Positions 5,062 through 59,029 of a stretch of 64,000 nt of DNA are shown here, piece after piece (within the stretch, counting starts at the first letter, position 1; each line of letters begins with the position of its first letter). Location of the stretch: positions 75,180 to 139,179 of the forward strand of contig JBBQTB010000008.1 in the NCBI GenBank assembly GCA_038213375.1, in the 5' to 3' direction. The notes below the pieces were generated by a model that saw only the letters and a list, made by a program, of their open reading frames with translations, had not been told where the DNA came from and searched no databases. The position numbers and the translations under genes were made by a program. Source of the stretch: Bacteroidales bacterium (GTDB taxonomy: Bacteria; Bacteroidota; Bacteroidia; Bacteroidales; JAAUTT01).

Positions 5062-5526
5062 TTATTTAGATTGCTTATATGTTATGATCGCTTTACTTTT
5101 ATCTTCAACAAAATCAATTTCAATAAATGTACTCGGGAAATTCCATTTACATAAATAAGGATGTTCTACTTTAAAAATTGGGTTTCCATATTTTTCAATT
5201 AAAAGTGATTCTAATGAGGTTATCTCAGAAAATCCCAATTTTCTGGTCAAAGTAATTTGACTCAATTTGTATGTGTTCCCAGTAAAGAAAAAATTAACTT
5301 CATAATTATAACCACTAATGTTATATTCTTCAATTTTTAAAAGATTAAAAAGTTGTGCCACTTGTTTGGCTTTATTTTCTATTATATTTTCTTTGGCAAA
5401 CAAGATCTTAATTGTGTCTGCTGACATACCCCATTCTGCATCTCTCCATCCTTTTAAATCATTCATGGTTTGCGAATAAATACTACCAGCATTAAAAAGG
5501 GCTAAAAGAATCAATAAATTTTTCAT
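5062..5526 (-). CDS. hypothetical secreted protein
   Basis: The ORF track gives 5062..5574. The internal Met at 5526 starts a clean signal peptide, MKNLLILLALFNAGSIYSQ. Confidence 0.55.
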   Translation of the reverse strand: MKNLLILLALFNAGSIYSQTMNDLKGWRDAEWGMSADTIKILFAKENIIENKAKQVAQLFNLLKIEEYNISGYNYEVNFFFTGNTYKLSQITLTRKLGFSEITSLESLLIEKYGNPIFKVEHPYLCKWNFPSTFIEIDFVEDKSKAIITYKQSK

Positions 5527-48232: not shown

Positions 48233-50701
48233 CTACACCAATTGTATCTTAAGCGAATTAAATTCTTCTTTTAATTCTTCGCAAGCTTGATAGCAAACGT
48301 TTTCAAGCTTTAAAACCAATTCTTGTATTTGTTCAAGATGTTGCCGTGTGCGTGCATATTCCTGAACTTTTTTAGCCATATCTTCATAATCCTTGTGCAG
48401 TCCCACGATCGAAAATGAGGGGATCATTTTATGCACTGCCGAGGACAATAAATCCCAATCTTTATCGTGCAAACTTTTTTTCATTGTTAAAACCAGAGGT
48501 GGGGTTTGATCCAAATAAAGGGTAATTATCTCCATCATTAATGCCGGATTAGATTTTGTGCAATTGTTTAAATAAGTTAAATTAACACGTTTTGATTTGC
48601 CTGCCGGCGCAGCGGACAACATCTCTTTTTCCGCATTATTAGTTGTATCTTTTACTAGCAAAGGTTTTTTTAGCAATTCAATTATTTTACTATATAAAAT
48701 TTTTTCGTCAACAGGTTTTGAGATATAATCATTCATGCCAACAGCTTTGCATTTTGCTAAATCAACTGTGGTAACGTCGGCTGTTAAAGCGATGATGGGG
48801 ATTTTAGATTTCATTGTATTACGAATGTATTCTGTAGCTTCAAAACCATTCATTTCGGGCATCTGTAAGTCCATCAAAATAATATCATACTGATTATTTT
48901 GTAGCTTTTCGATAGCAATTTTTCCATTGTCGGCGATTTCACGTTCAAACCCAAAATCGTCCAACAGTGTTTTCATCAATAATTGATTGAGTGGAATGTC
49001 TTCGGCAACCAAAACTTTGATATTTTTAATATCCGTGATCAAGTTCTCAATTTCTGTTTCTAATACTGCTTCGTCGTTTGTTTTTGGGAAACTTAAAATG
49101 ATACTAAAAGTGGATCCCTCGTCTAATTTGCTTTTTACTCTAATGCTTCCACCTTGCTGTTCTACTAATTGTTTAACTATGGCAAGGCCTAATCCTGTTC
49201 CTCCAAACAATCTCGAGGTATCACTAGTTGCCTGCTGAAAGTTGTCAAAAATCTTTCCTATTTTAGTTTCGTCTATCCCAATTCCGGTATCGGTAACGGC
49301 AAATTCAATAGACACTTTCTCTTCATCTTCGCTTATTAAATGAACGCTTACTGTAATTTTTCCTTTAGAAGTAAACTTTACGGCATTACTCACTAAATTC
49401 AAAATAATTTGATGCAGTCGAACTGGATCTCCAATCAAAACCTCCGGAATTTCACAGTCATATTCTTTAACCAATTCTAAATTTTTTTCCTGGATTTTCG
49501 TCTCAAACAAATGGAGCATCGCAGATATGGATAAGGCCATTTTGAAAGGTGTTTTCTCAAATGTCATTTTCCCTGCATCTACTTTTGCCAAATCGAGGAT
49601 GTCGTTAATGAGCACGATTAAAGTATTGCCACTCATTTTTATAGCGGTTAAATATTCTTTTTGTTTAATCGATAAATCTGTTTTCAACACCACTTTTGTA
49701 AATCCGATAATCGCATTCATAGGTGTGCGAATTTCATGACTCATGTTCGACAAAAATTGCTGTTTTGCTTTCATTGCATTCTCTGCTATGAATGTAGCAC
49801 TTTCGGCTTTACTTTTTGCTTCTTCGGCAATTAAAGTGGCCAACTCGGCAAATACTTTTGCCTCAGTCAATTCTGTTGCAATTCTTTTTTGGGCAGTAAC
49901 ATCTCTGGCCACAATCACTACGCCCAACACATTTCTTTTGCCATCTTTATATACCGATCCGTTGAATAATACATCGGTCAACTTGCCTTCTATATGGCGA
50001 ATGGTAAGTGGTAAATCGGAAACAGATCCTTTTGCGAACACTTCCTGGTATACTTTCTGTGCCATTTCGGGTTCGGTGAAATAATCAAAGAAATCAGCTC
50101 CAATTAATTTCTCGCGTGATACTCCGGTTACTTTTATCGACGCATTATTAATATCAGTGATTTTTCCTTCAGGGCTAATGGCAAATAATGGGTCGTGGCT
50201 TGCTTCAATTAGACTAAGAGAATATTTGGTAAGTGATTTTTGGGCAGTAAGATCATTATTAAGAGCTTTCAGTTTTTCCTTTTGAACTAATAATTCATGG
50301 TTTTTCTTATACAGATCTACAAAAACAGCCACTTTTGCTTTCAATATTTCCGGAGAAAGTGGTTTAATCATATAGTCGACTCCACCTGCCTGATATCCTT
50401 TGAAAATATTTACAGAAGTGTCCATACTTGCAGTTAAAAAAATAATCGGAACATGTTTGAGTTTTTCAATTTGGCGAATTAATTCTACTGTTTCAAATCC
50501 ATCCATTACAGGCATTTGCACATCCATTAATATCATGGCAAAACCTTGTTCGCGGCGAAGAATTTTTAATGCTTCCATGCCTGAACTTGCTTTCACACAT
50601 AAATAATTTTCATTGGAAAGAATTACTTCTAAGGCAAACAAATTTTCTGCCCGATCGTCTACCATTAAAATTTTGACAAGACCATTCACGTCCATTTTCA
50701 A
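48233..50701 (-). CDS. hybrid sensor kinase: REC - PAS - HisKA - HATPase_c - REC - HPt
   Basis: REC 1 (ILMVDD...ILMDVQMPVMDG), PAS (SLIEASHDPLFAISPEGKITDIN), H-box SHEIRTPMN, G-boxes DTGIGI / GGTGLGL, REC 2 (ILMDLQMPEMNG), and HPt (AVHKMIPSFSIVG). Confidence 0.85.
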   Translation of the reverse strand: MKMDVNGLVKILMVDDRAENLFALEVILSNENYLCVKASSGMEALKILRREQGFAMILMDVQMPVMDGFETVELIRQIEKLKHVPIIFLTASMDTSVNIFKGYQAGGVDYMIKPLSPEILKAKVAVFVDLYKKNHELLVQKEKLKALNNDLTAQKSLTKYSLSLIEASHDPLFAISPEGKITDINNASIKVTGVSREKLIGADFFDYFTEPEMAQKVYQEVFAKGSVSDLPLTIRHIEGKLTDVLFNGSVYKDGKRNVLGVVIVARDVTAQKRIATELTEAKVFAELATLIAEEAKSKAESATFIAENAMKAKQQFLSNMSHEIRTPMNAIIGFTKVVLKTDLSIKQKEYLTAIKMSGNTLIVLINDILDLAKVDAGKMTFEKTPFKMALSISAMLHLFETKIQEKNLELVKEYDCEIPEVLIGDPVRLHQIILNLVSNAVKFTSKGKITVSVHLISEDEEKVSIEFAVTDTGIGIDETKIGKIFDNFQQATSDTSRLFGGTGLGLAIVKQLVEQQGGSIRVKSKLDEGSTFSIILSFPKTNDEAVLETEIENLITDIKNIKVLVAEDIPLNQLLMKTLLDDFGFEREIADNGKIAIEKLQNNQYDIILMDLQMPEMNGFEATEYIRNTMKSKIPIIALTADVTTVDLAKCKAVGMNDYISKPVDEKILYSKIIELLKKPLLVKDTTNNAEKEMLSAAPAGKSKRVNLTYLNNCTKSNPALMMEIITLYLDQTPPLVLTMKKSLHDKDWDLLSSAVHKMIPSFSIVGLHKDYEDMAKKVQEYARTRQHLEQIQELVLKLENVCYQACEELKEEFNSLKIQLV

Positions 50702-50720
50702 TATAAATTATAGTTGTTGT

Positions 50721-53651
50721 TTAATTACTTAACCATACACGCATCAATGATAGCAATCGATCAACATCAATAGGCTTAGTAATGTAATCATTGGCCCCCG
50801 CATCGATGCATTTTTGTTTATCATCTTTCATGGCTTTAGCTGTGAGGGCAATTACAGGCAGACTCTTGAACCTGCTCTGAGCGCGAATACGTTTCATTGC
50901 TTCGTAACCATCCATTTCCGGCATCATAATATCCATCAATACCAGATCAATGTCAGGATGCATATCCAGCATCTCTAATGCATTTTTTCCATTATCGGCT
51001 TTTATTATTTCCATTCCACGCTCTTTTAATATGGTGGACAATGCAAAAACATTCGGCACATTATCATCTACCAATAATATTTTTTTCGCCTCAAAAATAA
51101 CTTCATTACCGTAAGGATTACTTATCACTGGTTGTTTTGCTTTAGGTAAATTATTAATGGTTCGGTTAAAAAAAACAGCCGTTTCATCCAGCAATCTTTC
51201 TTCCGATTTTATACCTTTTATAATTATGCACTCCGCATATTTCTGAAGTACCTTATTTTCTTCTTTTGTAAGCTCCTTACCGGTGTAAACAATTATAGGC
51301 GGAATGTTATAACCTTTAATATTATCCAGTTTATTAATAAGTTCGAAACCGTTCATATCTGGCAAACCAATATCTAATATAATACAATCGATATGATTTT
51401 TCTGGCATATTGCCAGGGCATCATTGCCTGTTTCTGCTTCAAAACAATTTACATCACTATTTCCAATGAGGATGCGTATGGCTTTTCTGGAATTTTCATT
51501 GTCTTCTATGATAAGCAGGTTTTTTATTTTTCTGCTAACAAAATTTTCAATTCTGTTAAATACATCTTCCAGATCTTTTTTCTCAATCGGTTTCATCAGA
51601 TACTCTACCGCTCCTTCCCGGATTGTTCCAGACGAACTTTCATTTACCGAAATAATATGCACCGGTATATGCTTGATGGATGGATTTGCTTTTAATTCAA
51701 TCAATACCTGATGCCCTTTTATGCCTGGCAGACCCATATCAAGAATGATCGCTAGCGGTATATGTTTTGAAGCAAGCAATAAACCATCTTCTCCGGTGGC
51801 AGCCGACAAACATTTGAATCCTTTTTTGTTGGCTTGCTTTAAAAGTATTGAAGCAAATTTCAGATCGTCTTCAATAATGAGTACAACTTTATCATTCTTG
51901 ATTATGGTATCTCTGTCATCTTTAATAGAGGGATAATTAAGATATTGGGTATTGTTTACAGAGAGAGGTTTATATAAATCATGTTCTTTAATTGTGCTAA
52001 CAGTTTCCTGTTCCACTTGCAATTCAAGAGGTATAATTAGAGAAAATGTTGATCCTTCATTTAATTTACTTTTTAACTTAATTTGAGCTCCTAATAATTT
52101 TGCGAGTTCGCGTGAAATAGAAAGTCCTAAACCCGTACCGCCATATTTTCGCGAGGTTCCTCCATCAGCTTGTTGAAAAGCTTCAAATATGGCCATTTGT
52201 TTGTCTTCCGGTATTCCAATACCTGTATCGGTAACGGAAATATTCACCATACTATCTGTATATCGGTCGATACGTATACTTACACTTCCCTCTTCTGTAA
52301 ACTTTATGGCGTTAGATAAAAGATTTTTCATTATCTGATTCAAACGCTGTGGATCAGTGTGGATAAATCCGGGCAATTCTTTATCCAATTTGCAAGTTAG
52401 GGTCAATCCTTTTTGTTCAGCATGATGTTTAAAATCGCGAATGAGCTCGTATGTAAAATTGCTTAGTGATATGCTTTCAATATTTATTGACATTTTCCCT
52501 GCTTCAATCTTTGAAAGGTCAAGAACTTCATTAATTAATACAAGCAGGTCATGACCACTTTTATAAATTATTTCTGCGCTTTCTACCTGGATGCTGTCAA
52601 GGTTTTTCTTTCTGTTTTCAGATAAATCTTTTGACAGGATAAGCAAACTATTAAGTGGGGTTCTTAATTCATGCGACATGTTTGCAAGAAATTCCGACTT
52701 ATACTTGCTGCTTATTTCCAGTTGTTTTGTTTTCTGTTCAATGTCGTTTTTTGCAGCTTCAACTTCCTGGTTTTGAAATGCAAGTTCCTTGTTAGCGAGG
52801 CTTAACTCCGCTGCTCGTTTTTCCTTCTCTTCGTTTTGAAATGCAAGTTCCTTGTTAGCAAGGCTTAACTCCGCTGCCCGTTTTTCCTTCTCTTCGTTTT
52901 GAAAAGCAAGTTCTTTGTTAGCAAGGCTTAACTCCGCTGCCCGTTTTTCCTTCTCTGCATTTTGAAAAGCAAGTTCTTTGTTAGCAATACTTAATTCCGC
53001 TGCCCGTTTTTCCTTCTCATCGTTTTGAAAGACCAGTTCTTTATTAGCAATGCTTAACTCCGCTGCCCGTTTTTCCTTCTCATCATTTTGAAAAACCAGC
53101 TCTTTATTGGCAATGATTAACTCCGCTGCCCGTTTTTCCTTCTCATCGTTTTGAAAGACCAGTTCTTTGTTAGCAATGATTAATTCCGCTGCCCGTTTTT
53201 CTTTCTCTTCGTTCTGAAAAACAAGTTCTATATTAGCAATGCTTAATTCAGCGGCCCGTTTTTCCTTCTCTTCGTCTTGAAATGCCAGTTCTTTGTTAGC
53301 AATGATTAATTCGCCTGCCCGTTTTTCCTTCTCTTCGTCTTGAAAGACCAGTTCTTTGTTAGCAATGATTAATTCTCCTGCCCGTTTTTCTTTCTCTTCG
53401 TCTTGAAAAGCAAGTTCTACATTAGCAATGATTAATTCTCCTGCCCGTTTGCCTTTCTCTTTGTCCTGAAAAGCAAGTTCAATGTTAGCAATGCCTAATT
53501 CTGCTGCTCGTTTTCCTTTCTCTTCTTTTTGAAAAGCAAGTTCCTGACGAGCAATGATTAATTCCGCTGCCAGTTTTATATTCTCTTCTTTTTGAAAAGC
53601 AAGTTCTTTGCGGGTAATAAATAACTCATCCAATTTTTTTTTGTCAGGCAT
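50721..53651 (-). CDS. hybrid kinase with no TM or sensor domain: 13.5 x 21-aa tandem repeats - HisKA - HATPase_c - 3 REC
   Basis: Residues 16-288 are ELAFQ[KDN][EDA]EKEKRA[AG]EL[IS][IL]AN[KI] x13. These are followed by H-box SHELRTPLN, DTGIGI / GGTGLGL, and three REC domains (IILDMGLPG, IILDIGLPDMNG, VLMDIMMPEMDG). Confidence 0.85.
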   Translation of the reverse strand: MPDKKKLDELFITRKELAFQKEENIKLAAELIIARQELAFQKEEKGKRAAELGIANIELAFQDKEKGKRAGELIIANVELAFQDEEKEKRAGELIIANKELVFQDEEKEKRAGELIIANKELAFQDEEKEKRAAELSIANIELVFQNEEKEKRAAELIIANKELVFQNDEKEKRAAELIIANKELVFQNDEKEKRAAELSIANKELVFQNDEKEKRAAELSIANKELAFQNAEKEKRAAELSLANKELAFQNEEKEKRAAELSLANKELAFQNEEKEKRAAELSLANKELAFQNQEVEAAKNDIEQKTKQLEISSKYKSEFLANMSHELRTPLNSLLILSKDLSENRKKNLDSIQVESAEIIYKSGHDLLVLINEVLDLSKIEAGKMSINIESISLSNFTYELIRDFKHHAEQKGLTLTCKLDKELPGFIHTDPQRLNQIMKNLLSNAIKFTEEGSVSIRIDRYTDSMVNISVTDTGIGIPEDKQMAIFEAFQQADGGTSRKYGGTGLGLSISRELAKLLGAQIKLKSKLNEGSTFSLIIPLELQVEQETVSTIKEHDLYKPLSVNNTQYLNYPSIKDDRDTIIKNDKVVLIIEDDLKFASILLKQANKKGFKCLSAATGEDGLLLASKHIPLAIILDMGLPGIKGHQVLIELKANPSIKHIPVHIISVNESSSGTIREGAVEYLMKPIEKKDLEDVFNRIENFVSRKIKNLLIIEDNENSRKAIRILIGNSDVNCFEAETGNDALAICQKNHIDCIILDIGLPDMNGFELINKLDNIKGYNIPPIIVYTGKELTKEENKVLQKYAECIIIKGIKSEERLLDETAVFFNRTINNLPKAKQPVISNPYGNEVIFEAKKILLVDDNVPNVFALSTILKERGMEIIKADNGKNALEMLDMHPDIDLVLMDIMMPEMDGYEAMKRIRAQSRFKSLPVIALTAKAMKDDKQKCIDAGANDYITKPIDVDRLLSLMRVWLSN
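52788..53606 (-). repeat. in-frame 63-bp tandem repeat array (13 full units plus a partial 14th)
   Basis: Directly visible in DNA, for example near-identical units at about 52800-52990. The protein units number 13. The kinase-proximal copies are identical in triplets or pairs, and the N-terminal copies are more diverged. Confidence 0.9.
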
Positions 53652-53662
53652 TTCCTATTTTA

Positions 53663-56170
53663 TTAATTACTTAACCATACTCGCATCAAAGATAGCAAAC
53701 GTTCTATATCAATTGGCTTAGTGATATAATCGTTAGCGCCGGCATCGATGCAGTTTTGTTTATCGTCTTTCATGGCTTTTGCTGTGAGTGCAATTACAGG
53801 TAGGTCCTTTAACCTTCTCTGAGATCGTATTTTTCTCATTGCTTCGTAACCGTCCATTTCGGGCATCATAATATCCATCAATACCAGGTCAATATCGGAA
53901 TGCAGATCCAACATATCCAACGCATTTTTTCCATTATCTGCTTTTATTATTTCCATTCCGCGTTCATTTAATATTTTTGATAATGCAAATACGTTTCTCA
54001 TATCATCATCTACCAATAATATTTTTTTCATGTGGAATAAAGCTTCTTTATCGTACAAATTAGATATAATCAATTGTTTTGATTTCGGTAAATTACTTAT
54101 CGTTCTGTGCAGGAAAAGAGCGGTTTCATCCAGTAATCGTTCTTCCGATTTTACACCTTTTATTATAATGCTTTCTGCATAATTCTGAAGTTCATTGTTT
54201 TCTTCTTTCGTAAGCTCCTTGCCAGTGTAAACAATAATAGGAGGTATGTTAATGTCTTTTATATTCTTTAGCTTATGGATAAGTTCAAAACCATTCATGT
54301 CCGGCAAGCCAAGATCCAGTATCATACAATCAATATGATTTTCCCGGTATATTGTCAGTGCATCCTTGCCGTTACCTGCTTCAAAACATTTTACATCACC
54401 ATTGCCGATGAGTATACGCATTGCTTTTCTGGAAGTTTCATTATCTTCGATGATGAGCAGGTTTTTTATTTTTCTGCTTACAAAATTTTCAATTCTGTTA
54501 AATGCATCCTCCAGTTCTTTTTTATTTATAGGTTTCATCAGATACTCCACAGCTCCTTCTTTAATCGATTCCAGCGAACGTTCCTTTGCCGAAATAATAT
54601 GTACCGGAATATGTCTTATGGTTGGATTTGCTTTTAATTCGGTCAATACCTGATGTCCCTTAATACCTGGCAGCCCCATATCAAGAATGATCGCTTGCGG
54701 TTTGTGTTTTGAAGCAAGAAATAAACAATCTTCTCCGGTGGCAGCCGACAAACATTTGAATCCTTTTTTGTTGGCTTGTTTTAAAAGTATTGAAGCAAAT
54801 TTCAGATCGTCTTCAACAATAAGAACAACTTTATCATCCTTGGTAATAGTATTTCTGTCATCTTCAATGGTGGGATAATTAAGATATTTGGCAGCATTTA
54901 CCGAAAGAGGTTTATAAACAGATGATTCTTTAGTATCGGTTCTGGTAGATTCCTGCTCATATTCTATTTCAATTGGAATAATCACTGAAAAAGTGGAACC
55001 TTCATTTATCGTACTGTTCACTTTAATTTCAGCTCCTAATAATTTTGCAAGTTGACGTGATATAGAGAGACCTAAACCCGTGCCCCCATACTTTCGTGAA
55101 GTTCCGCCATCAGCCTGTTGAAAAGCTTCAAATATTGACATTTGTTTTTCCTGAAGTATTCCAAGGCCTGTATCGGTAACGGAAATAACCAATGTGCTTT
55201 CTGTAAAGCGGTCAATAAGTATACTTACACTTCCTTTTTCGGTGAATTTTATGGCATTGGATAAAAGATTTTTCAATATCTGATTTAAACGTTGTAAATC
55301 GGTACGGATAGATTCGGGCAATTCTTTGTTTAATTTGCAAGTCAATATCAACCCTTTTTGTTCGGCGTGATGTTTAAAATTGCGAATGAGCTCATCTGCA
55401 AATTTTCTCAATGATATGCTTTCAATATTTATTGACATTTTACCTGCTTCAATTTTGGAGAGGTCAAGAACTTCGTTAATTAATACAAGCAGATCGTTCC
55501 CACTTTTATAAATAATTTCTGCACTTTCTATCTGTATGCTATCCAGGTTTTTCTTTCTGTTCTCAGCTAAATCTTTTGATAGGATAAGCAAACTATTAAG
55601 CGGTGTTCTTAGCTCATGTGACATGTTTGAAAGAAATTCCGATTTATACCTGCTGCTTATTTCCAGTTGTTTTGTCTTCTTTTCAATGTCGTTTTTTGCG
55701 GTTTCTACTTCTTCATTTTTCATTTTCAATGCCTGAGTTTGTTCTTCCAGTTCCTCATTGGACATTTGTAATTCCTCCTGCTGTTGTTTCAGATTTTGGG
55801 TCTGTTCTTCCAGTTCTTCATTCATATGCTTCAACTCTTCCTGCTGAGTTTGAAGTTCTTCGGCTTGAGAGGCAAGTTCGTTATTGGCAATGCCCAACTC
55901 CGTTGCTCGTTTTTCTTTCTCAGCGTTTTGAAAGGCCAGTTCTTTGTTGGCTATTCTTAGTTCTGCTGCGCGGTTTTCTTTCTCATCATTTTGATAAGCT
56001 AATTCTTTATTCGCAATACCCAACTCCGATGCTCGTCTTTCTTTTTCATCGTTTTGAAAGGCAAGCTCTTTGTTGGCTACTTTTAATTCTGCTGCCCGGT
56101 TTTCTTTCTCATCATTTTGATATGCTAGTTCTTTATTGGCAATACCCAACTCCGATGCTCGTTTTTCTTT
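53663..56170 (-). CDS. kinase module of an interrupted sensor kinase: 21-aa repeats - Q/E-rich heptad segment - HisKA - HATPase_c - 3 REC
   Basis: Same frame as 56171..57481 and contiguous with it. There is no ATG near the 5' end: the track start at 56149 is the TTG inside ...SELGIANK, and the first in-frame ATG is about 105 codons in. H-box SHELRTPLN and three REC domains. Close paralog of 50721..53651. Confidence 0.75.
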   Translation of the reverse strand, partial: KEKRASELGIANKELAYQNDEKENRAAELKVANKELAFQNDEKERRASELGIANKELAYQNDEKENRAAELRIANKELAFQNAEKEKRATELGIANNELASQAEELQTQQEELKHMNEELEEQTQNLKQQQEELQMSNEELEEQTQALKMKNEEVETAKNDIEKKTKQLEISSRYKSEFLSNMSHELRTPLNSLLILSKDLAENRKKNLDSIQIESAEIIYKSGNDLLVLINEVLDLSKIEAGKMSINIESISLRKFADELIRNFKHHAEQKGLILTCKLNKELPESIRTDLQRLNQILKNLLSNAIKFTEKGSVSILIDRFTESTLVISVTDTGLGILQEKQMSIFEAFQQADGGTSRKYGGTGLGLSISRQLAKLLGAEIKVNSTINEGSTFSVIIPIEIEYEQESTRTDTKESSVYKPLSVNAAKYLNYPTIEDDRNTITKDDKVVLIVEDDLKFASILLKQANKKGFKCLSAATGEDCLFLASKHKPQAIILDMGLPGIKGHQVLTELKANPTIRHIPVHIISAKERSLESIKEGAVEYLMKPINKKELEDAFNRIENFVSRKIKNLLIIEDNETSRKAMRILIGNGDVKCFEAGNGKDALTIYRENHIDCMILDLGLPDMNGFELIHKLKNIKDINIPPIIVYTGKELTKEENNELQNYAESIIIKGVKSEERLLDETALFLHRTISNLPKSKQLIISNLYDKEALFHMKKILLVDDDMRNVFALSKILNERGMEIIKADNGKNALDMLDLHSDIDLVLMDIMMPEMDGYEAMRKIRSQRRLKDLPVIALTAKAMKDDKQNCIDAGANDYITKPIDIERLLSLMRVWLSN
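55703..55879 (-). other. Q/E-rich heptad (coiled-coil) segment ELASQAEELQTQQEELKHMNEELEEQTQNLKQQQEELQMSNEELEEQTQALKMKNEEVE
   Basis: Read from the translation. Present only in this paralog and absent from 50721..53651. Confidence 0.8.
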
Positions 56171-56305
56171 CTAATCGTTTTGAAAGGCTAGCTCTTTGAT
56201 CGCTATTCTCAACTCTGCCGCCCGTTTTTCCTTCTCGTCGTTTTGGTATGCTAGTTCATTGTTCGCAATGGCTAACTCTGCAGCTCGTTTTTCTTTCTCT
56301 TCACT
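55880..56305 (-). repeat. 63-bp / 21-aa repeat array spanning the in-frame TAG (about 6.8 units, alternating ELAYQ..R/K-I/V-ANK and ELAFQ..GIANK)
   Basis: SEEKEKRAAELAIANN ELAYQNDEKEKRAAELRIAIK ELAFQND*KEKRASELGIANK ELAYQNDEKENRAAELKVANK ELAFQNDEKERRASELGIANK ELAYQNDEKENRAAELRIANK ELAFQNAEKEKRATELGIANN. Confidence 0.9.
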
Positions 56306-57481
56306 CTGAATTTGTGTTTCTTCAAGCAATTCCAATATCTGTTTTCTGTCAATAGCTGAGTTTACGCTAATGGCAATAATGTCCATAGAAACATTGATAA
56401 ATTCCGTTTGTGTTTTGCTGAAGTTAGTTAGACTGCCAATTTCTATTACACCCAATGTTTTACCTTCAAACAAAAAAGGAGTAATAAGCAAATGTTTTGG
56501 TTTGGCATTCAGAACAGATGAGGTTATTCGTATGTGTTCTTCGGTTATATCTGTTAAAGAAATTGGTTTCTGTTCTCGCGCCGCTTGTCCTATTAACCCT
56601 TCATTTATTGTAAATTTTTCTTTCACTTCTTTAGGAGACGCAAAGGCATATTGACCGCGAAGCACCAGTGTATTGTCTTTATCATTAAAGATGTAAACAG
56701 CACCTATATTTGCTTTTAGGTATGTGCATAAAAAACTAATTGAATTGGTTGCCAGCTCTTCTATTCGCTGTACTCCTATTAATTTTTCGCTAAGCTTCGA
56801 GTTACCGGTAAGTAGCCAGTTTTTACTTACGGTTTCCGCTTCGGCTCTTTCCAGTGCTCTTAAATTTGTAGTAACTATATTGTATACAATAATAAGAATA
56901 ACAACAATGATCAATAATAGGATGGCAAAAACAACATTAAAAGTTCCGGCATCGCTATCACTGGTTTTTTTTCGTTCGGCAATTAATGGATGTTCTATTC
57001 CCTGTGCCCTATCAATTATTTCTCTTATCCTATCTTCTATTCGTTTTCCTTCACCCGAAGCTACAAATTCTTTGGCTATTGCAAAATCCTTTTTTCGAAG
57101 TTCTATGCATCTGTTAAAAAAACTATTTTGCTTTTTAAATTCCTTCTGAAGTTCCTCAATATTCTTTTGCTGATTAAGATTATCTTTTGTTAATTCCTTT
57201 ACTTTATTAAGATGTTCAAATCCTTTTGCATTGGCATTTAAATAGGGTTCCAGAAAATTATCATCGCCTGTTATAACAAACCCCCGTATGCCTGTTTCAC
57301 CATCAATGGAAGCAACTAATATTTGCTCAAATTCATACAATACCTGGTTGGTATGATTTATCAACGCATTTGAAGCTACAAATTTCTCGCTATTTTTAAA
57401 AGTAAAAATTGCAACTCCGAAAAGGATCAAAACACAAGCAATAAATCCTAATAATATTTTTCTACTAAATGTAATTTCCAT
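56171..57481 (-). CDS. sensor module: TM - CHASE3 - TM - GAF - 21-aa repeats, ended by in-frame TAG 56171-56173
   Basis: The CHASE3-like region (HTNQVLYEFEQIL...ETGIRGFVITGDDNFLEPY) is flanked by two TM helices. GAF-like region (ISFLCTYLKANIGAVYIF...GLIGQAA...GVIEIGS). C-terminal repeats. Confidence 0.8.
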   Translation of the reverse strand: MEITFSRKILLGFIACVLILFGVAIFTFKNSEKFVASNALINHTNQVLYEFEQILVASIDGETGIRGFVITGDDNFLEPYLNANAKGFEHLNKVKELTKDNLNQQKNIEELQKEFKKQNSFFNRCIELRKKDFAIAKEFVASGEGKRIEDRIREIIDRAQGIEHPLIAERKKTSDSDAGTFNVVFAILLLIIVVILIIVYNIVTTNLRALERAEAETVSKNWLLTGNSKLSEKLIGVQRIEELATNSISFLCTYLKANIGAVYIFNDKDNTLVLRGQYAFASPKEVKEKFTINEGLIGQAAREQKPISLTDITEEHIRITSSVLNAKPKHLLITPFLFEGKTLGVIEIGSLTNFSKTQTEFINVSMDIIAISVNSAIDRKQILELLEETQIQSEEKEKRAAELAIANNELAYQNDEKEKRAAELRIAIKELAFQND

Positions 57482-57485
57482 TTTA

Positions 57486-58064
57486 TTATTTGTAAAGTTG
57501 GAGTTGTGTTAATTTTATTAATAAATCGATTATTCCTTCAAGGGATAAAATATAATCCACCTGCATAGCTGCAATTGCTGAAGCTGGCATGCAGCTGGAT
57601 TCTGCGGTGGACGGATCCTGAACAATTGTTAAACCACCGTATTCTTTTATTAGTTTCAAGCCCTTTGTCCCATCACTATTTGAGCCCGTTAGTATCACTC
57701 CAATCAATTTGTTTTTATAGGCTTCGGCAGCCGATTCAAAAAGAACATCAATGGATGGTCTTGCAAAATTTACACGTTCATCTATGGATAGAGAAAATGT
57801 TTTATTTTTTTCGAGAAGCAAATGATAATTAGGTGGAGCAATGTAAATTTTTCCATGTTCAATTTTTTCCTTTTCATCGGCTTCTTTTATTTCGAGATTG
57901 CTTTTATCATTTAAAAGTCTTATCCAAAGGTTTTCAGAATTCGCACTTAAATGTTGCACAATAATAATTGGAATGTTAAATTCCTTTGGTAAAAGAGAAA
58001 ACATGGTTTTCATCGCATTCATTCCGCCGGAAGAAACCCCTATTACAATTGCTTCATAATCCAT
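57486..58064 (-). CDS. cheB: CheB-type protein-glutamate methylesterase/glutaminase, catalytic domain only (no REC)
   Basis: 192 aa. Catalytic-triad contexts GVSSGG (Ser), IIVQHL (His) and TGSNSDGT (Asp). Confidence 0.85.
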   Translation of the reverse strand: MDYEAIVIGVSSGGMNAMKTMFSLLPKEFNIPIIIVQHLSANSENLWIRLLNDKSNLEIKEADEKEKIEHGKIYIAPPNYHLLLEKNKTFSLSIDERVNFARPSIDVLFESAAEAYKNKLIGVILTGSNSDGTKGLKLIKEYGGLTIVQDPSTAESSCMPASAIAAMQVDYILSLEGIIDLLIKLTQLQLYK

Positions 58065-58204
58065 TGTCTTTATTATTATTCTGGTAAGGGTATTAGTTTT
58101 AATAACTCATCTTAGTGAAGGCGATGTACCATTATTGATTCATTTATAATGCGAATTAAGAGGGAGGTAAACCTTAATTGCCATCCGTTTTAGACGTTAC
58201 ATTT

Positions 58205-59029
58205 TTAATATTTTTTTTTAAATATTCGTTGTTGTTTATCCAACTCAGTGTATTCATCATGAAAATTAGAAAACCGTAAACCCTCTTTTGAACCCAAACA
58301 TAAAATTCCACCATCAATCAAGCTGTCATAAAAAAGTTTTTGTACTTCATTTTGTAAATTTCTATCAAAATAAATAAGCACATTTCTGCATAATATCAAA
58401 TGTACCTCGGCAAATACACTATCAGTTACCAAATTATGATTTGCCCAAACAATATTTTTTTTTAGTGATTGATTCATGATAACGTTATCATCATCGGAAA
58501 TATAATAATTCGAAAAAGATTCCTTACCTCCCGACAATTGATAATTGGAAGTGTATTCTTTCATCATTTTGTTGGAAAAAATTCCTTGTTTCGCGTAGTT
58601 CAGCGCTTGTTGATTAAAATCTGTGGCATATATCGTAGTTCTGTCATACAAGCCCTCCTCCTGTAAAATAATCGACATTGAATACGCTTCTTCGCCTGTG
58701 GAACAGCCAGCGTGCCATATTTTTATAAAAGAATAAGTTTTTAAAACGGGTATAACTTTTGCCCTCACTGATCTGTAAAAGCCCGGGTCACGAAACATTT
58801 CGGTAACCGTTATTGAAAGATCTTGTAATAGACTGAAAGTGAATGTTTCATCATACAGAACCTTCGATTGCATTTGAGAAATATTCTCTAGTCCCGACAT
58901 CCTCATTTTGTTCATAATCCTTCGTCTGATGTGGGATTCGGAATACTGCCTGAAATCGTAACCGTATTTCTGATAAATAACTTCTAATAAGGATGAAATT
59001 TCCAGTTCCGTTGTATCTTTATATTTCAA
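58205..59029 (-). CDS. cheR: CheR-type protein-glutamate O-methyltransferase
   Basis: TEMFRD, IWHAGCSTGEEAYS and CRNVLIYF motifs. The track start is a TTG and there is no in-frame ATG upstream. Confidence 0.85.
   Translation of the reverse strand: MKYKDTTELEISSLLEVIYQKYGYDFRQYSESHIRRRIMNKMRMSGLENISQMQSKVLYDETFTFSLLQDLSITVTEMFRDPGFYRSVRAKVIPVLKTYSFIKIWHAGCSTGEEAYSMSIILQEEGLYDRTTIYATDFNQQALNYAKQGIFSNKMMKEYTSNYQLSGGKESFSNYYISDDDNVIMNQSLKKNIVWANHNLVTDSVFAEVHLILCRNVLIYFDRNLQNEVQKLFYDSLIDGGILCLGSKEGLRFSNFHDEYTELDKQQRIFKKKY

Follow-up and report, generated by a model that had tools for sequence, protein, structure and literature searches.

We analyzed a stretch of 64,000 nucleotides (nt) from the genome of a Bacteroidales bacterium (contig JBBQTB010000008.1, positions 75,180 to 139,179; the whole stretch is called the window in what follows), in which a large minus-strand gene for a hybrid histidine kinase is interrupted by a single in-frame TAG codon. 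The interrupted gene is probably a real, young and ordinary nonsense allele of an RsbK-like CHASE3-GAF hybrid histidine kinase, and the comparisons described below suggest that the stop is neither a recoding signal nor a conserved gene split. An earlier note on this DNA had put forward a recent nonsense mutation or sequencing error, a functional split with restart of translation at a TTG codon, and a low level of read-through that sets a ratio between two products. A recent nonsense mutation turned out to be the best supported of these: the orthologs and about 70 other relatives are intact, and the half of the gene downstream of the stop has not decayed.

The whole frame runs on the minus strand from an ATG at 57481 to a TAA at 53663 (3819 nt, 1273 codons). 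The TAG (56171..56173) is codon 437 and the sole internal stop. In the order of translation, the frame encodes TM-CHASE3-TM-GAF (TM, transmembrane segment), seven 21-residue repeats, a Q/E-rich coiled coil, HisKA-HATPase and three receiver domains. Around the stop the minus strand reads GAG CTA GCC TTT CAA AAC GAT TAG AAA GAA AAA CGA GCA TCG GAG TTG GGT, which translates as ELAFQND*KEKRASELG. Both this reading and the placement of the two parts in a single 3819-nt frame had been given in the earlier note, and the window sequence bears them out, with no second internal stop.

The repeat array (55862..56302, minus strand) is composed of seven signaling-helix-like units of 63 nt (21 residues), numbered 0 to 6 and organized as a 126-nt super-repeat in which units of the ELAYQN and ELAFQN types alternate. 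Within unit 2, the third of the seven, the TAG occupies the second codon and stands for the Glu of QN-D-E-K-E-K-R-A. At the equivalent position all six of the other units encode Glu, as the earlier note had said; the codon is GAG in five of them and GAA in one. Since the other units carry Glu there, with GAG in five of them, a G-to-T change of GAG into TAG would be the parsimonious single-step path. The transversion that the note had proposed is in this sense upheld as the simplest route; the ancestral codon itself is not observed, and the sister unit most similar to the stop-bearing one, unit 4, is the one that has GAA and not GAG. A GTG-started open reading frame (ORF) of 198 codons overlaps both the TAG and the array on the opposite strand (55603-56199, plus strand). 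It is probably not a gene but an antisense shadow that the E/K-rich repeats produce.

The upstream ORF (56171..57481, minus strand) encodes 436 residues, which comprise TM1, CHASE3 (residues 38-172), TM2, GAF (residues 240-372), two complete repeat units (0 and 1) and one residue, the first, of unit 2. With Pfam profiles, CHASE3 was detected in this part at an E value of 9.4e-32 and GAF (as GAF_2) at 5.6e-13. The CHASE3 domain is flanked by two hydrophobic segments, TM2 and GAF are only about 35 residues apart, and no Pfam match to a HAMP domain was obtained at E ≤ 0.01 in the interrupted kinase. The downstream part (53663..56170, minus strand) contains five repeat units, the Q/E-rich coiled coil, HisKA, HATPase_c and three receiver (REC) domains (Pfam Response_reg). 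It shows no additional stop and no frameshift, and the H, N, G1 and G2 boxes as well as the Asp motifs of the receivers are all preserved. The Q/E-rich heptad segment (EELQTQQEELKHMNEELEEQ...; 55658..55861, minus strand), located between the repeats and HisKA, holds in-frame ATG codons at positions 553, 573 and 587 of the frame. Neither half of the gene matched a specific family in NCBIfam.

Comparison of orthologous loci, which the earlier note had suggested, revealed intact genes in both relatives of the same genus that were found by searching 40 related genomes. The ortholog in G003 shares 92% identity over the sensor half and 94% overall and is an uninterrupted ORF of 1189 residues, whereas that in G001 shares 73% over the sensor half and 79% overall and is an uninterrupted ORF of 1210 residues. 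Both are without the particular repeat units that surround the TAG, yet uninterrupted. Judged from these orthologs, the two halves are one gene and not a chance feature of a random frame, because the orthologs hold both in one intact ORF.

A wider set of relatives was collected in two surveys that used the CHASE3-GAF profile alone and hence applied no selection by length. The loci that span the junction between sensor and kinase, about 38 in species-representative genomes and about 31 in metagenomes, were all in one frame, with an in-frame stop between the two in none of these approximately 70 relatives. When the protein obtained by reading through the TAG was used as query, 1113 full-length homologs were retrieved at E ≤ 1e-150, many of them from Flavobacterium isolates. 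One homolog of the same length, P0130 (1273 residues, 80% identity), contains seven intact repeat units, each with Glu at the position of the stop. No stand-alone CHASE3-GAF gene family was found among the complete genes in the search, and an exact look-up of the 436-residue product gave no protein on record. On this comparative evidence the fused gene is the conserved state and the stop is derived, because the orthologs, the roughly 70 surveyed relatives and the 1113 homologs are uninterrupted. Metagenomes were also scanned with a 41-mer spanning the stop, in which the mutated base was replaced by N; no match and hence no conspecific allele was obtained.

The stop lies in a part of the gene that varies in copy number. 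The array is longer than that of G003 by four units, namely two 126-nt super-repeats, and longer than that of G001 by three, and the TAG falls within the expanded part. Among the orthologs (loci L017-L094) the distance from GAF to HisKA takes values of 101, 129, 150, 164, 185, 213, 234, 248, 255, 276, 297 and 332 residues, corresponding to roughly 0-11 units. These lengths are all equal modulo 7, with steps mostly of 21. The array is therefore a dispensable amplification of a signaling helix that varies in copy number and keeps its helical phase, the latter because the linker lengths differ by multiples of 7. A 15-nt exact match stands directly upstream of the TAG, and an in-register deletion of 126 nt that made use of this match would take out the unit with the stop and give an intact kinase of 1230 residues; that contraction of the repeats could revert the nonsense allele is a speculative thought.

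The ratio of nonsynonymous to synonymous substitution rates (dN/dS) was calculated pairwise with respect to the ortholog of G003, which is 93% identical. The sensor half gave a value of 0.21 and the kinase half one of 0.14, at a synonymous divergence (dS) of about 0.17-0.22. Because dN/dS is low at a dS of about 0.2, the kinase half has not undergone pseudogene drift over any appreciable part of the period since the two species diverged. The stop must then have arisen very recently, or else the kinase half is still in use.

Broken relatives were taken from a protein search restricted in length to 240-763 residues, and interruptions were separated from contig ends by looking up the contigs. Five such alleles were found, all interrupted between GAF and HisKA. 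L015 has a TAA in NEELE*QTQ followed by an intact downstream ORF of 688 residues, and its 458-residue protein was assembled from two Joint Genome Institute (JGI) samples. L016 has three TAA codons within 14 codons (NLK*QQEELQITNE*L*EQ), with an intact downstream ORF of 689 residues. In L099 the TAA stands in QITNE*LEEQ, at the codon matching the second stop of L016, and the frame behind it is still open. The remaining two, in which the downstream kinase ORF is also still open, are L100, with a frameshift in the Q/E segment (5265-5272), and L101, with a deletion and a frameshift at the end of GAF (5091-5137). The TAA stops of these lineages map to the equivalent of the Q/E-rich segment at 55658..55861.

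L016 could be compared with a nearly identical intact contig, L073. Over 11,152 nt the two are 99.94% identical and differ at seven sites, of which four are scattered transitions outside the gene and the other three are exactly the transversions that create the stops. The latter are clustered C-to-A and G-to-T changes, each making a TAA (L016:7246-7287 against L073:6252-6293). L016 is a metagenome contig from ENA with 8x coverage, and the differences are those from two JGI contigs of the population to which it belongs. The triple stop could be due to a clustered mutational event, to selection for truncation or to an artefact of low coverage. In the 39-nt stretch concerned, 7 of the 17 G/C sites yield a stop under G:C-to-T:A change, by a hand count on the L073 sequence, and the probability that three of three changes give stops by chance is about 0.07, given one clustered mutational event. 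The value of the triple TAA as proof of selection is weakened by this probability.

The stop-creating changes in the linker are six if the GAG-to-TAG change supposed for the window is itself counted, and all six are of the G:C-to-T:A type (56173, L015:6963, L016:7247, L016:7279, L016:7285 and codon 437 of L099). C-to-T transitions, which could create stops at many Gln codons, account for none of the six. Of all one-step nonsense paths, 11-22% fall in the E/Q/K-rich linker, and the examples were ascertained by length; the argument that selection for fission follows from the location of all breaks in the linker was for this reason found weak. The clustering of the broken alleles in the linker is suggestive but weak. 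These alleles are isolated tips interrupted at different positions of the linker, and none has an evolved start codon. Since they look fresh and none turned up in the two surveys, the pattern is what one would expect of alleles that keep arising but do not persist.

Several of the observations collected here weigh against an ordinary nonsense allele. No conspecific genome or contig with an intact allele was found. The low dN/dS and the intact kinase motifs are equally compatible with function that continues after the split. The recurrence of breaks in the same linker, with the downstream ORFs intact, could mean that breakage is tolerated or even favored. Finally, the assembly is in 73 contigs, no 16S rRNA gene was found in it, and its nearest relatives are metagenome-assembled genomes (MAGs) labelled Bacteroidales or Bacteroidetes, which leaves room for an error of sequence.

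The second and third of these points bear on a fission of the gene that is tolerated or functional, with a membrane sensor and a separate repeat-headed kinase produced by reinitiation at the TTG or at the ATG codons 553-587. The kinase would then act like the natural sensorless ones, possibly through coiled-coil association with the tail of the sensor or with a paralog. Such an outcome appears unlikely, although a number of facts speak for it besides the wholly intact downstream half with its low dN/dS. Kinases that start within a repeat array of this kind are common in isolates (Flavobacterium frigidarium, Arenibacter, Mucilaginibacter), and one of them, 78% identical to the downstream fragment, adjoins the interrupted gene in its operon and is kept in the closest relative. 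At least three other lineages (L015, L016 and L099) carry in-frame TAA codons in the same linker, the L015 allele was assembled from two metagenomes, and L100 and L101 are broken in the same linker by a frameshift or a deletion. On the other hand, the gene is split in none of the approximately 70 relatives of the two surveys made without selection by length, and a stand-alone CHASE3-GAF family is lacking among complete genes. The split alleles are fresh, L016 differing from the intact allele by only its three stops and four sites in 11 kb; they come from a length-filtered search and fall in a linker rich in nonsense paths.

The context of the TTG also counts against fission. The first in-frame start-type codon after the TAG is the TTG at 56147..56149, 21 nt downstream, which encodes the Leu of SELG. 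The earlier note had correctly identified this codon, eight codons after the TAG, as the start given in the ORF track. Its statement that no ATG occurs for about 105 codons needs correction, as the first in-frame ATG, codon 553, lies 116 codons past the TAG. Initiation in Bacteroidetes does without a Shine-Dalgarno sequence and relies on low mRNA structure and on upstream adenines, notably an A at -3 (PMC6847099). The region behind the TAG is A-rich and weakly structured, and the TTG has G at -3. This TTG is an ancestral Leu codon, identical in sister unit 4, and it is not in a favored initiation context. No start codon seems to have newly evolved behind the TAG, where the only near candidates would be ancestral Leu-TTG codons. 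For lack of conservation and of a derived start, the functional split with TTG restart that the earlier note had found attractive was not supported.

A related idea goes further and sees in recurrent, tolerated fission at an expandable array the origin of the sensorless repeat-headed kinases of Bacteroidota. Restart behind the stop would yield the two halves as separate proteins, and the 126-nt contraction would provide a switch at the level of the population. We regard it as rather improbable.

Whether the TAG is read as a stop at all was examined in the genome as a whole. Among ORFs of at least 300 codons, 347 of 2057 (17%) are terminated by TAG. ARAGORN detected 40 tRNA genes in the genome, none with a CUA, UUA or UCA anticodon, and hence no suppressor and no tRNA-Pyl; neither tRNA-Asn nor tRNA-Ala (TGC) was among the 40. 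TAG is an ordinary stop codon in the host genome. An alternative genetic code or a suppressor was rejected as explanation, TAG being a regular terminator in a genome with no CUA-anticodon tRNA.

Programmed or leaky read-through of the TAG would yield a little full-length kinase and set the ratio between the sensor fragment and the full-length protein. In E. coli, termination is comparatively weak when A comes directly after the stop codon, as it does at this TAG. Moreover, a tRNA-Gln with the anticodon CUG, near-cognate to UAG, is present in the genome, and Belinky et al. make the case that bacteria often read through in-frame stops (PMC7918605). However, the stop is conserved in no relative, and the other broken lineages carry TAA instead, three TAA codons within 14, as in L016, not being efficiently readable. 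With TAG in regular use as terminator and no suppressor tRNA at hand, the read-through ratio envisaged in the earlier note is hardly credible for this gene.

The remaining alternative is an error of base calling or of the consensus, or a minority haplotype of a MAG, so that the true or dominant codon would be GAG and the gene intact. The assembly (4.95 Mb, 37% G+C) is 99% complete by marker genes and is probably a MAG, because it has no 16S rRNA gene and its relatives are MAGs. The interrupted protein is on record from a single contig. G:C-to-T:A changes belong to the oxidative-damage class and arise in library preparation, and the G-to-T change considered here is of this class; the three clustered changes of this type in L016, at 8x coverage, may themselves be an artefact. 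Against this, consensus errors are rare at normal coverage, and the stop of L015 was assembled twice independently, so that alleles of this sort do exist in nature. No exact repeats of 31 nt or more occur within the array or between the array and the rest of the genome, and every k-mer (k ≥ 31) over the TAG is unique in the genome. Repeat mis-assembly is unlikely because the array is unique at k ≥ 31; collapse of repeats or a chimeric assembly was rejected as cause on this ground. Taken together, we consider it quite unlikely that the stop is an error or a minority variant.

If the stop is indeed a young nonsense allele, the following sequence of events may be proposed. In the third unit of the helical linker, a Glu codon, most simply GAG, would have become TAG by a G-to-T change. 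Translation would end at this TAG, and the product set free would be a CHASE3-GAF fragment that is anchored in the membrane and carries a tail of two repeats. Since sensor and kinase would no longer be joined covalently, the fused kinase would be null or strongly reduced. Protein from the kinase half could arise only by inefficient restart at the TTG or at the ATG codons 553-587, or by trace read-through. The adjacent paralog, with its 78% identity and its matching succession of repeats, kinase and three REC domains, may be what makes the loss tolerable.

The stop belongs to the known and widespread class of in-frame stops in bacterial genes that are otherwise intact (Belinky et al., 2021; PMC7918605). 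Like other members of this class and like young nonsense pseudogenes, it is one premature stop in place of a sense codon, the sole lesion in a gene that remains in one frame, has intact orthologs and shows low dN/dS. It is unlike them in that it stands in an array of variable copy number, that a 126-nt contraction could delete it, and that a near-identical paralog is adjacent.

The kinase itself is most easily compared with RsbK of Bacillus cereus, a CHASE3-HAMP-GAF-S-helix-HK-REC protein (HK, histidine kinase). In that system the CheR-type methyltransferase RsbM, an orphan enzyme, methylates the signaling helix of RsbK (PMC4574943). The two systems share CHASE3 and GAF, a helical linker before HisKA, receiver domains at the C-terminus and a CheR-type gene in the operon. 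In contrast to RsbK, the window kinase has no HAMP domain, its linker is amplified (seven 21-residue repeats plus the Q/E coil) and its receivers are three instead of one. Moreover, its operon includes a CheB gene, no sigma-B/RsbY context was seen, and the gene is interrupted. The kinase thus resembles RsbK by analogy of architecture and was not filed as a member of the RsbK/RsbM system, and methylation of its linker is putative.

The linker has its counterpart in the signaling helix (S-helix) of sensor kinases and cyclases (Anantharaman, Balaji & Aravind, 2006; PMC1592074). It likewise is a heptad-periodic helix between sensor and HisKA, in which lengths differ among orthologs by multiples of 7. 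The classical S-helix has about 40 residues, whereas here it is amplified in tandem, with 0-11 units among the orthologs and the stop within the amplified part.

A further comparison concerns the sensorless repeat-headed kinases of Bacteroidota, for example those of Flavobacterium frigidarium, Arenibacter and Mucilaginibacter antarcticus, which are annotated 'sensor histidine kinase' and have at their N-terminus only repeats of the ANKELAFQNxEKExRAAEL type in front of the kinase core. A protein translated from the downstream fragment would be built in the same way. Those kinases are stable genes of isolates with ATG starts of their own, while the fragment in the window has an ancestral Leu-TTG and distant ATG codons. 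A literature search on split histidine kinases with reinitiation and on CHASE3/CheR/CheB hybrid kinases in Bacteroidetes found nothing on the present system.

For annotation, these results mean that the two adjacent ORFs should be described as one nonsense-interrupted RsbK-like hybrid kinase, and not as a CHASE3-GAF sensor followed by a TTG-started kinase. Were the split functional, it would be a natural uncoupling of sensor and kinase within a signaling helix, and it would explain in concrete terms where the many repeat-headed kinases without a sensor come from. The surroundings may in the end outweigh the stop: a kinase-linked CheR-CheB pair, a linker of 0-11 phase-preserving units and recurrent fresh disruptions in wild populations.

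The interrupted kinase is the third gene of a tightly packed operon on the minus strand. The first gene (58205..59029) encodes a CheR-type methyltransferase, and the second (57486..58064), directly upstream of the kinase, a CheB methylesterase that consists of the catalytic domain only. After the kinase comes the paralog P0001 (50721..53651, minus strand), of 976 residues, which lacks a sensor domain; it starts with ATG and has at least 13 repeat units ahead of HisKA, HATPase and three REC domains. Its 78% identity is with the fragment downstream of the TAG, and its N-terminus, MPDKKKLDELFITRKELAFQ..., begins within a degenerate repeat. The start of the paralog is kept in the closest relative (L013:2-634), and the contig of G003 stops within the paralog's repeat array. 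A third kinase of the operon (48233..50701, minus strand) has PAS, HisKA, HATPase and two REC domains. No genes for methyl-accepting chemotaxis proteins, CheA or CheW were present in the operon (48233-59029) or in its immediate flanks. The order CheR, CheB (catalytic domain only) and CHASE3-GAF kinase was seen again in the distant metagenome relatives L015, L016 and L101, while L099 shows CheR only.

The genome also contains about a dozen other pairs of ORFs in the same frame, each ORF of at least 150 codons, with one stop between them and the first ATG more than 50 codons further on. They include pairs on C14 (minus strand, offsets 82454-82913 of the reverse-complemented contig), at C44:32735-34193 and at C9:3977-6302, together with about ten more, and it is possible that they are further nonsense-split genes.

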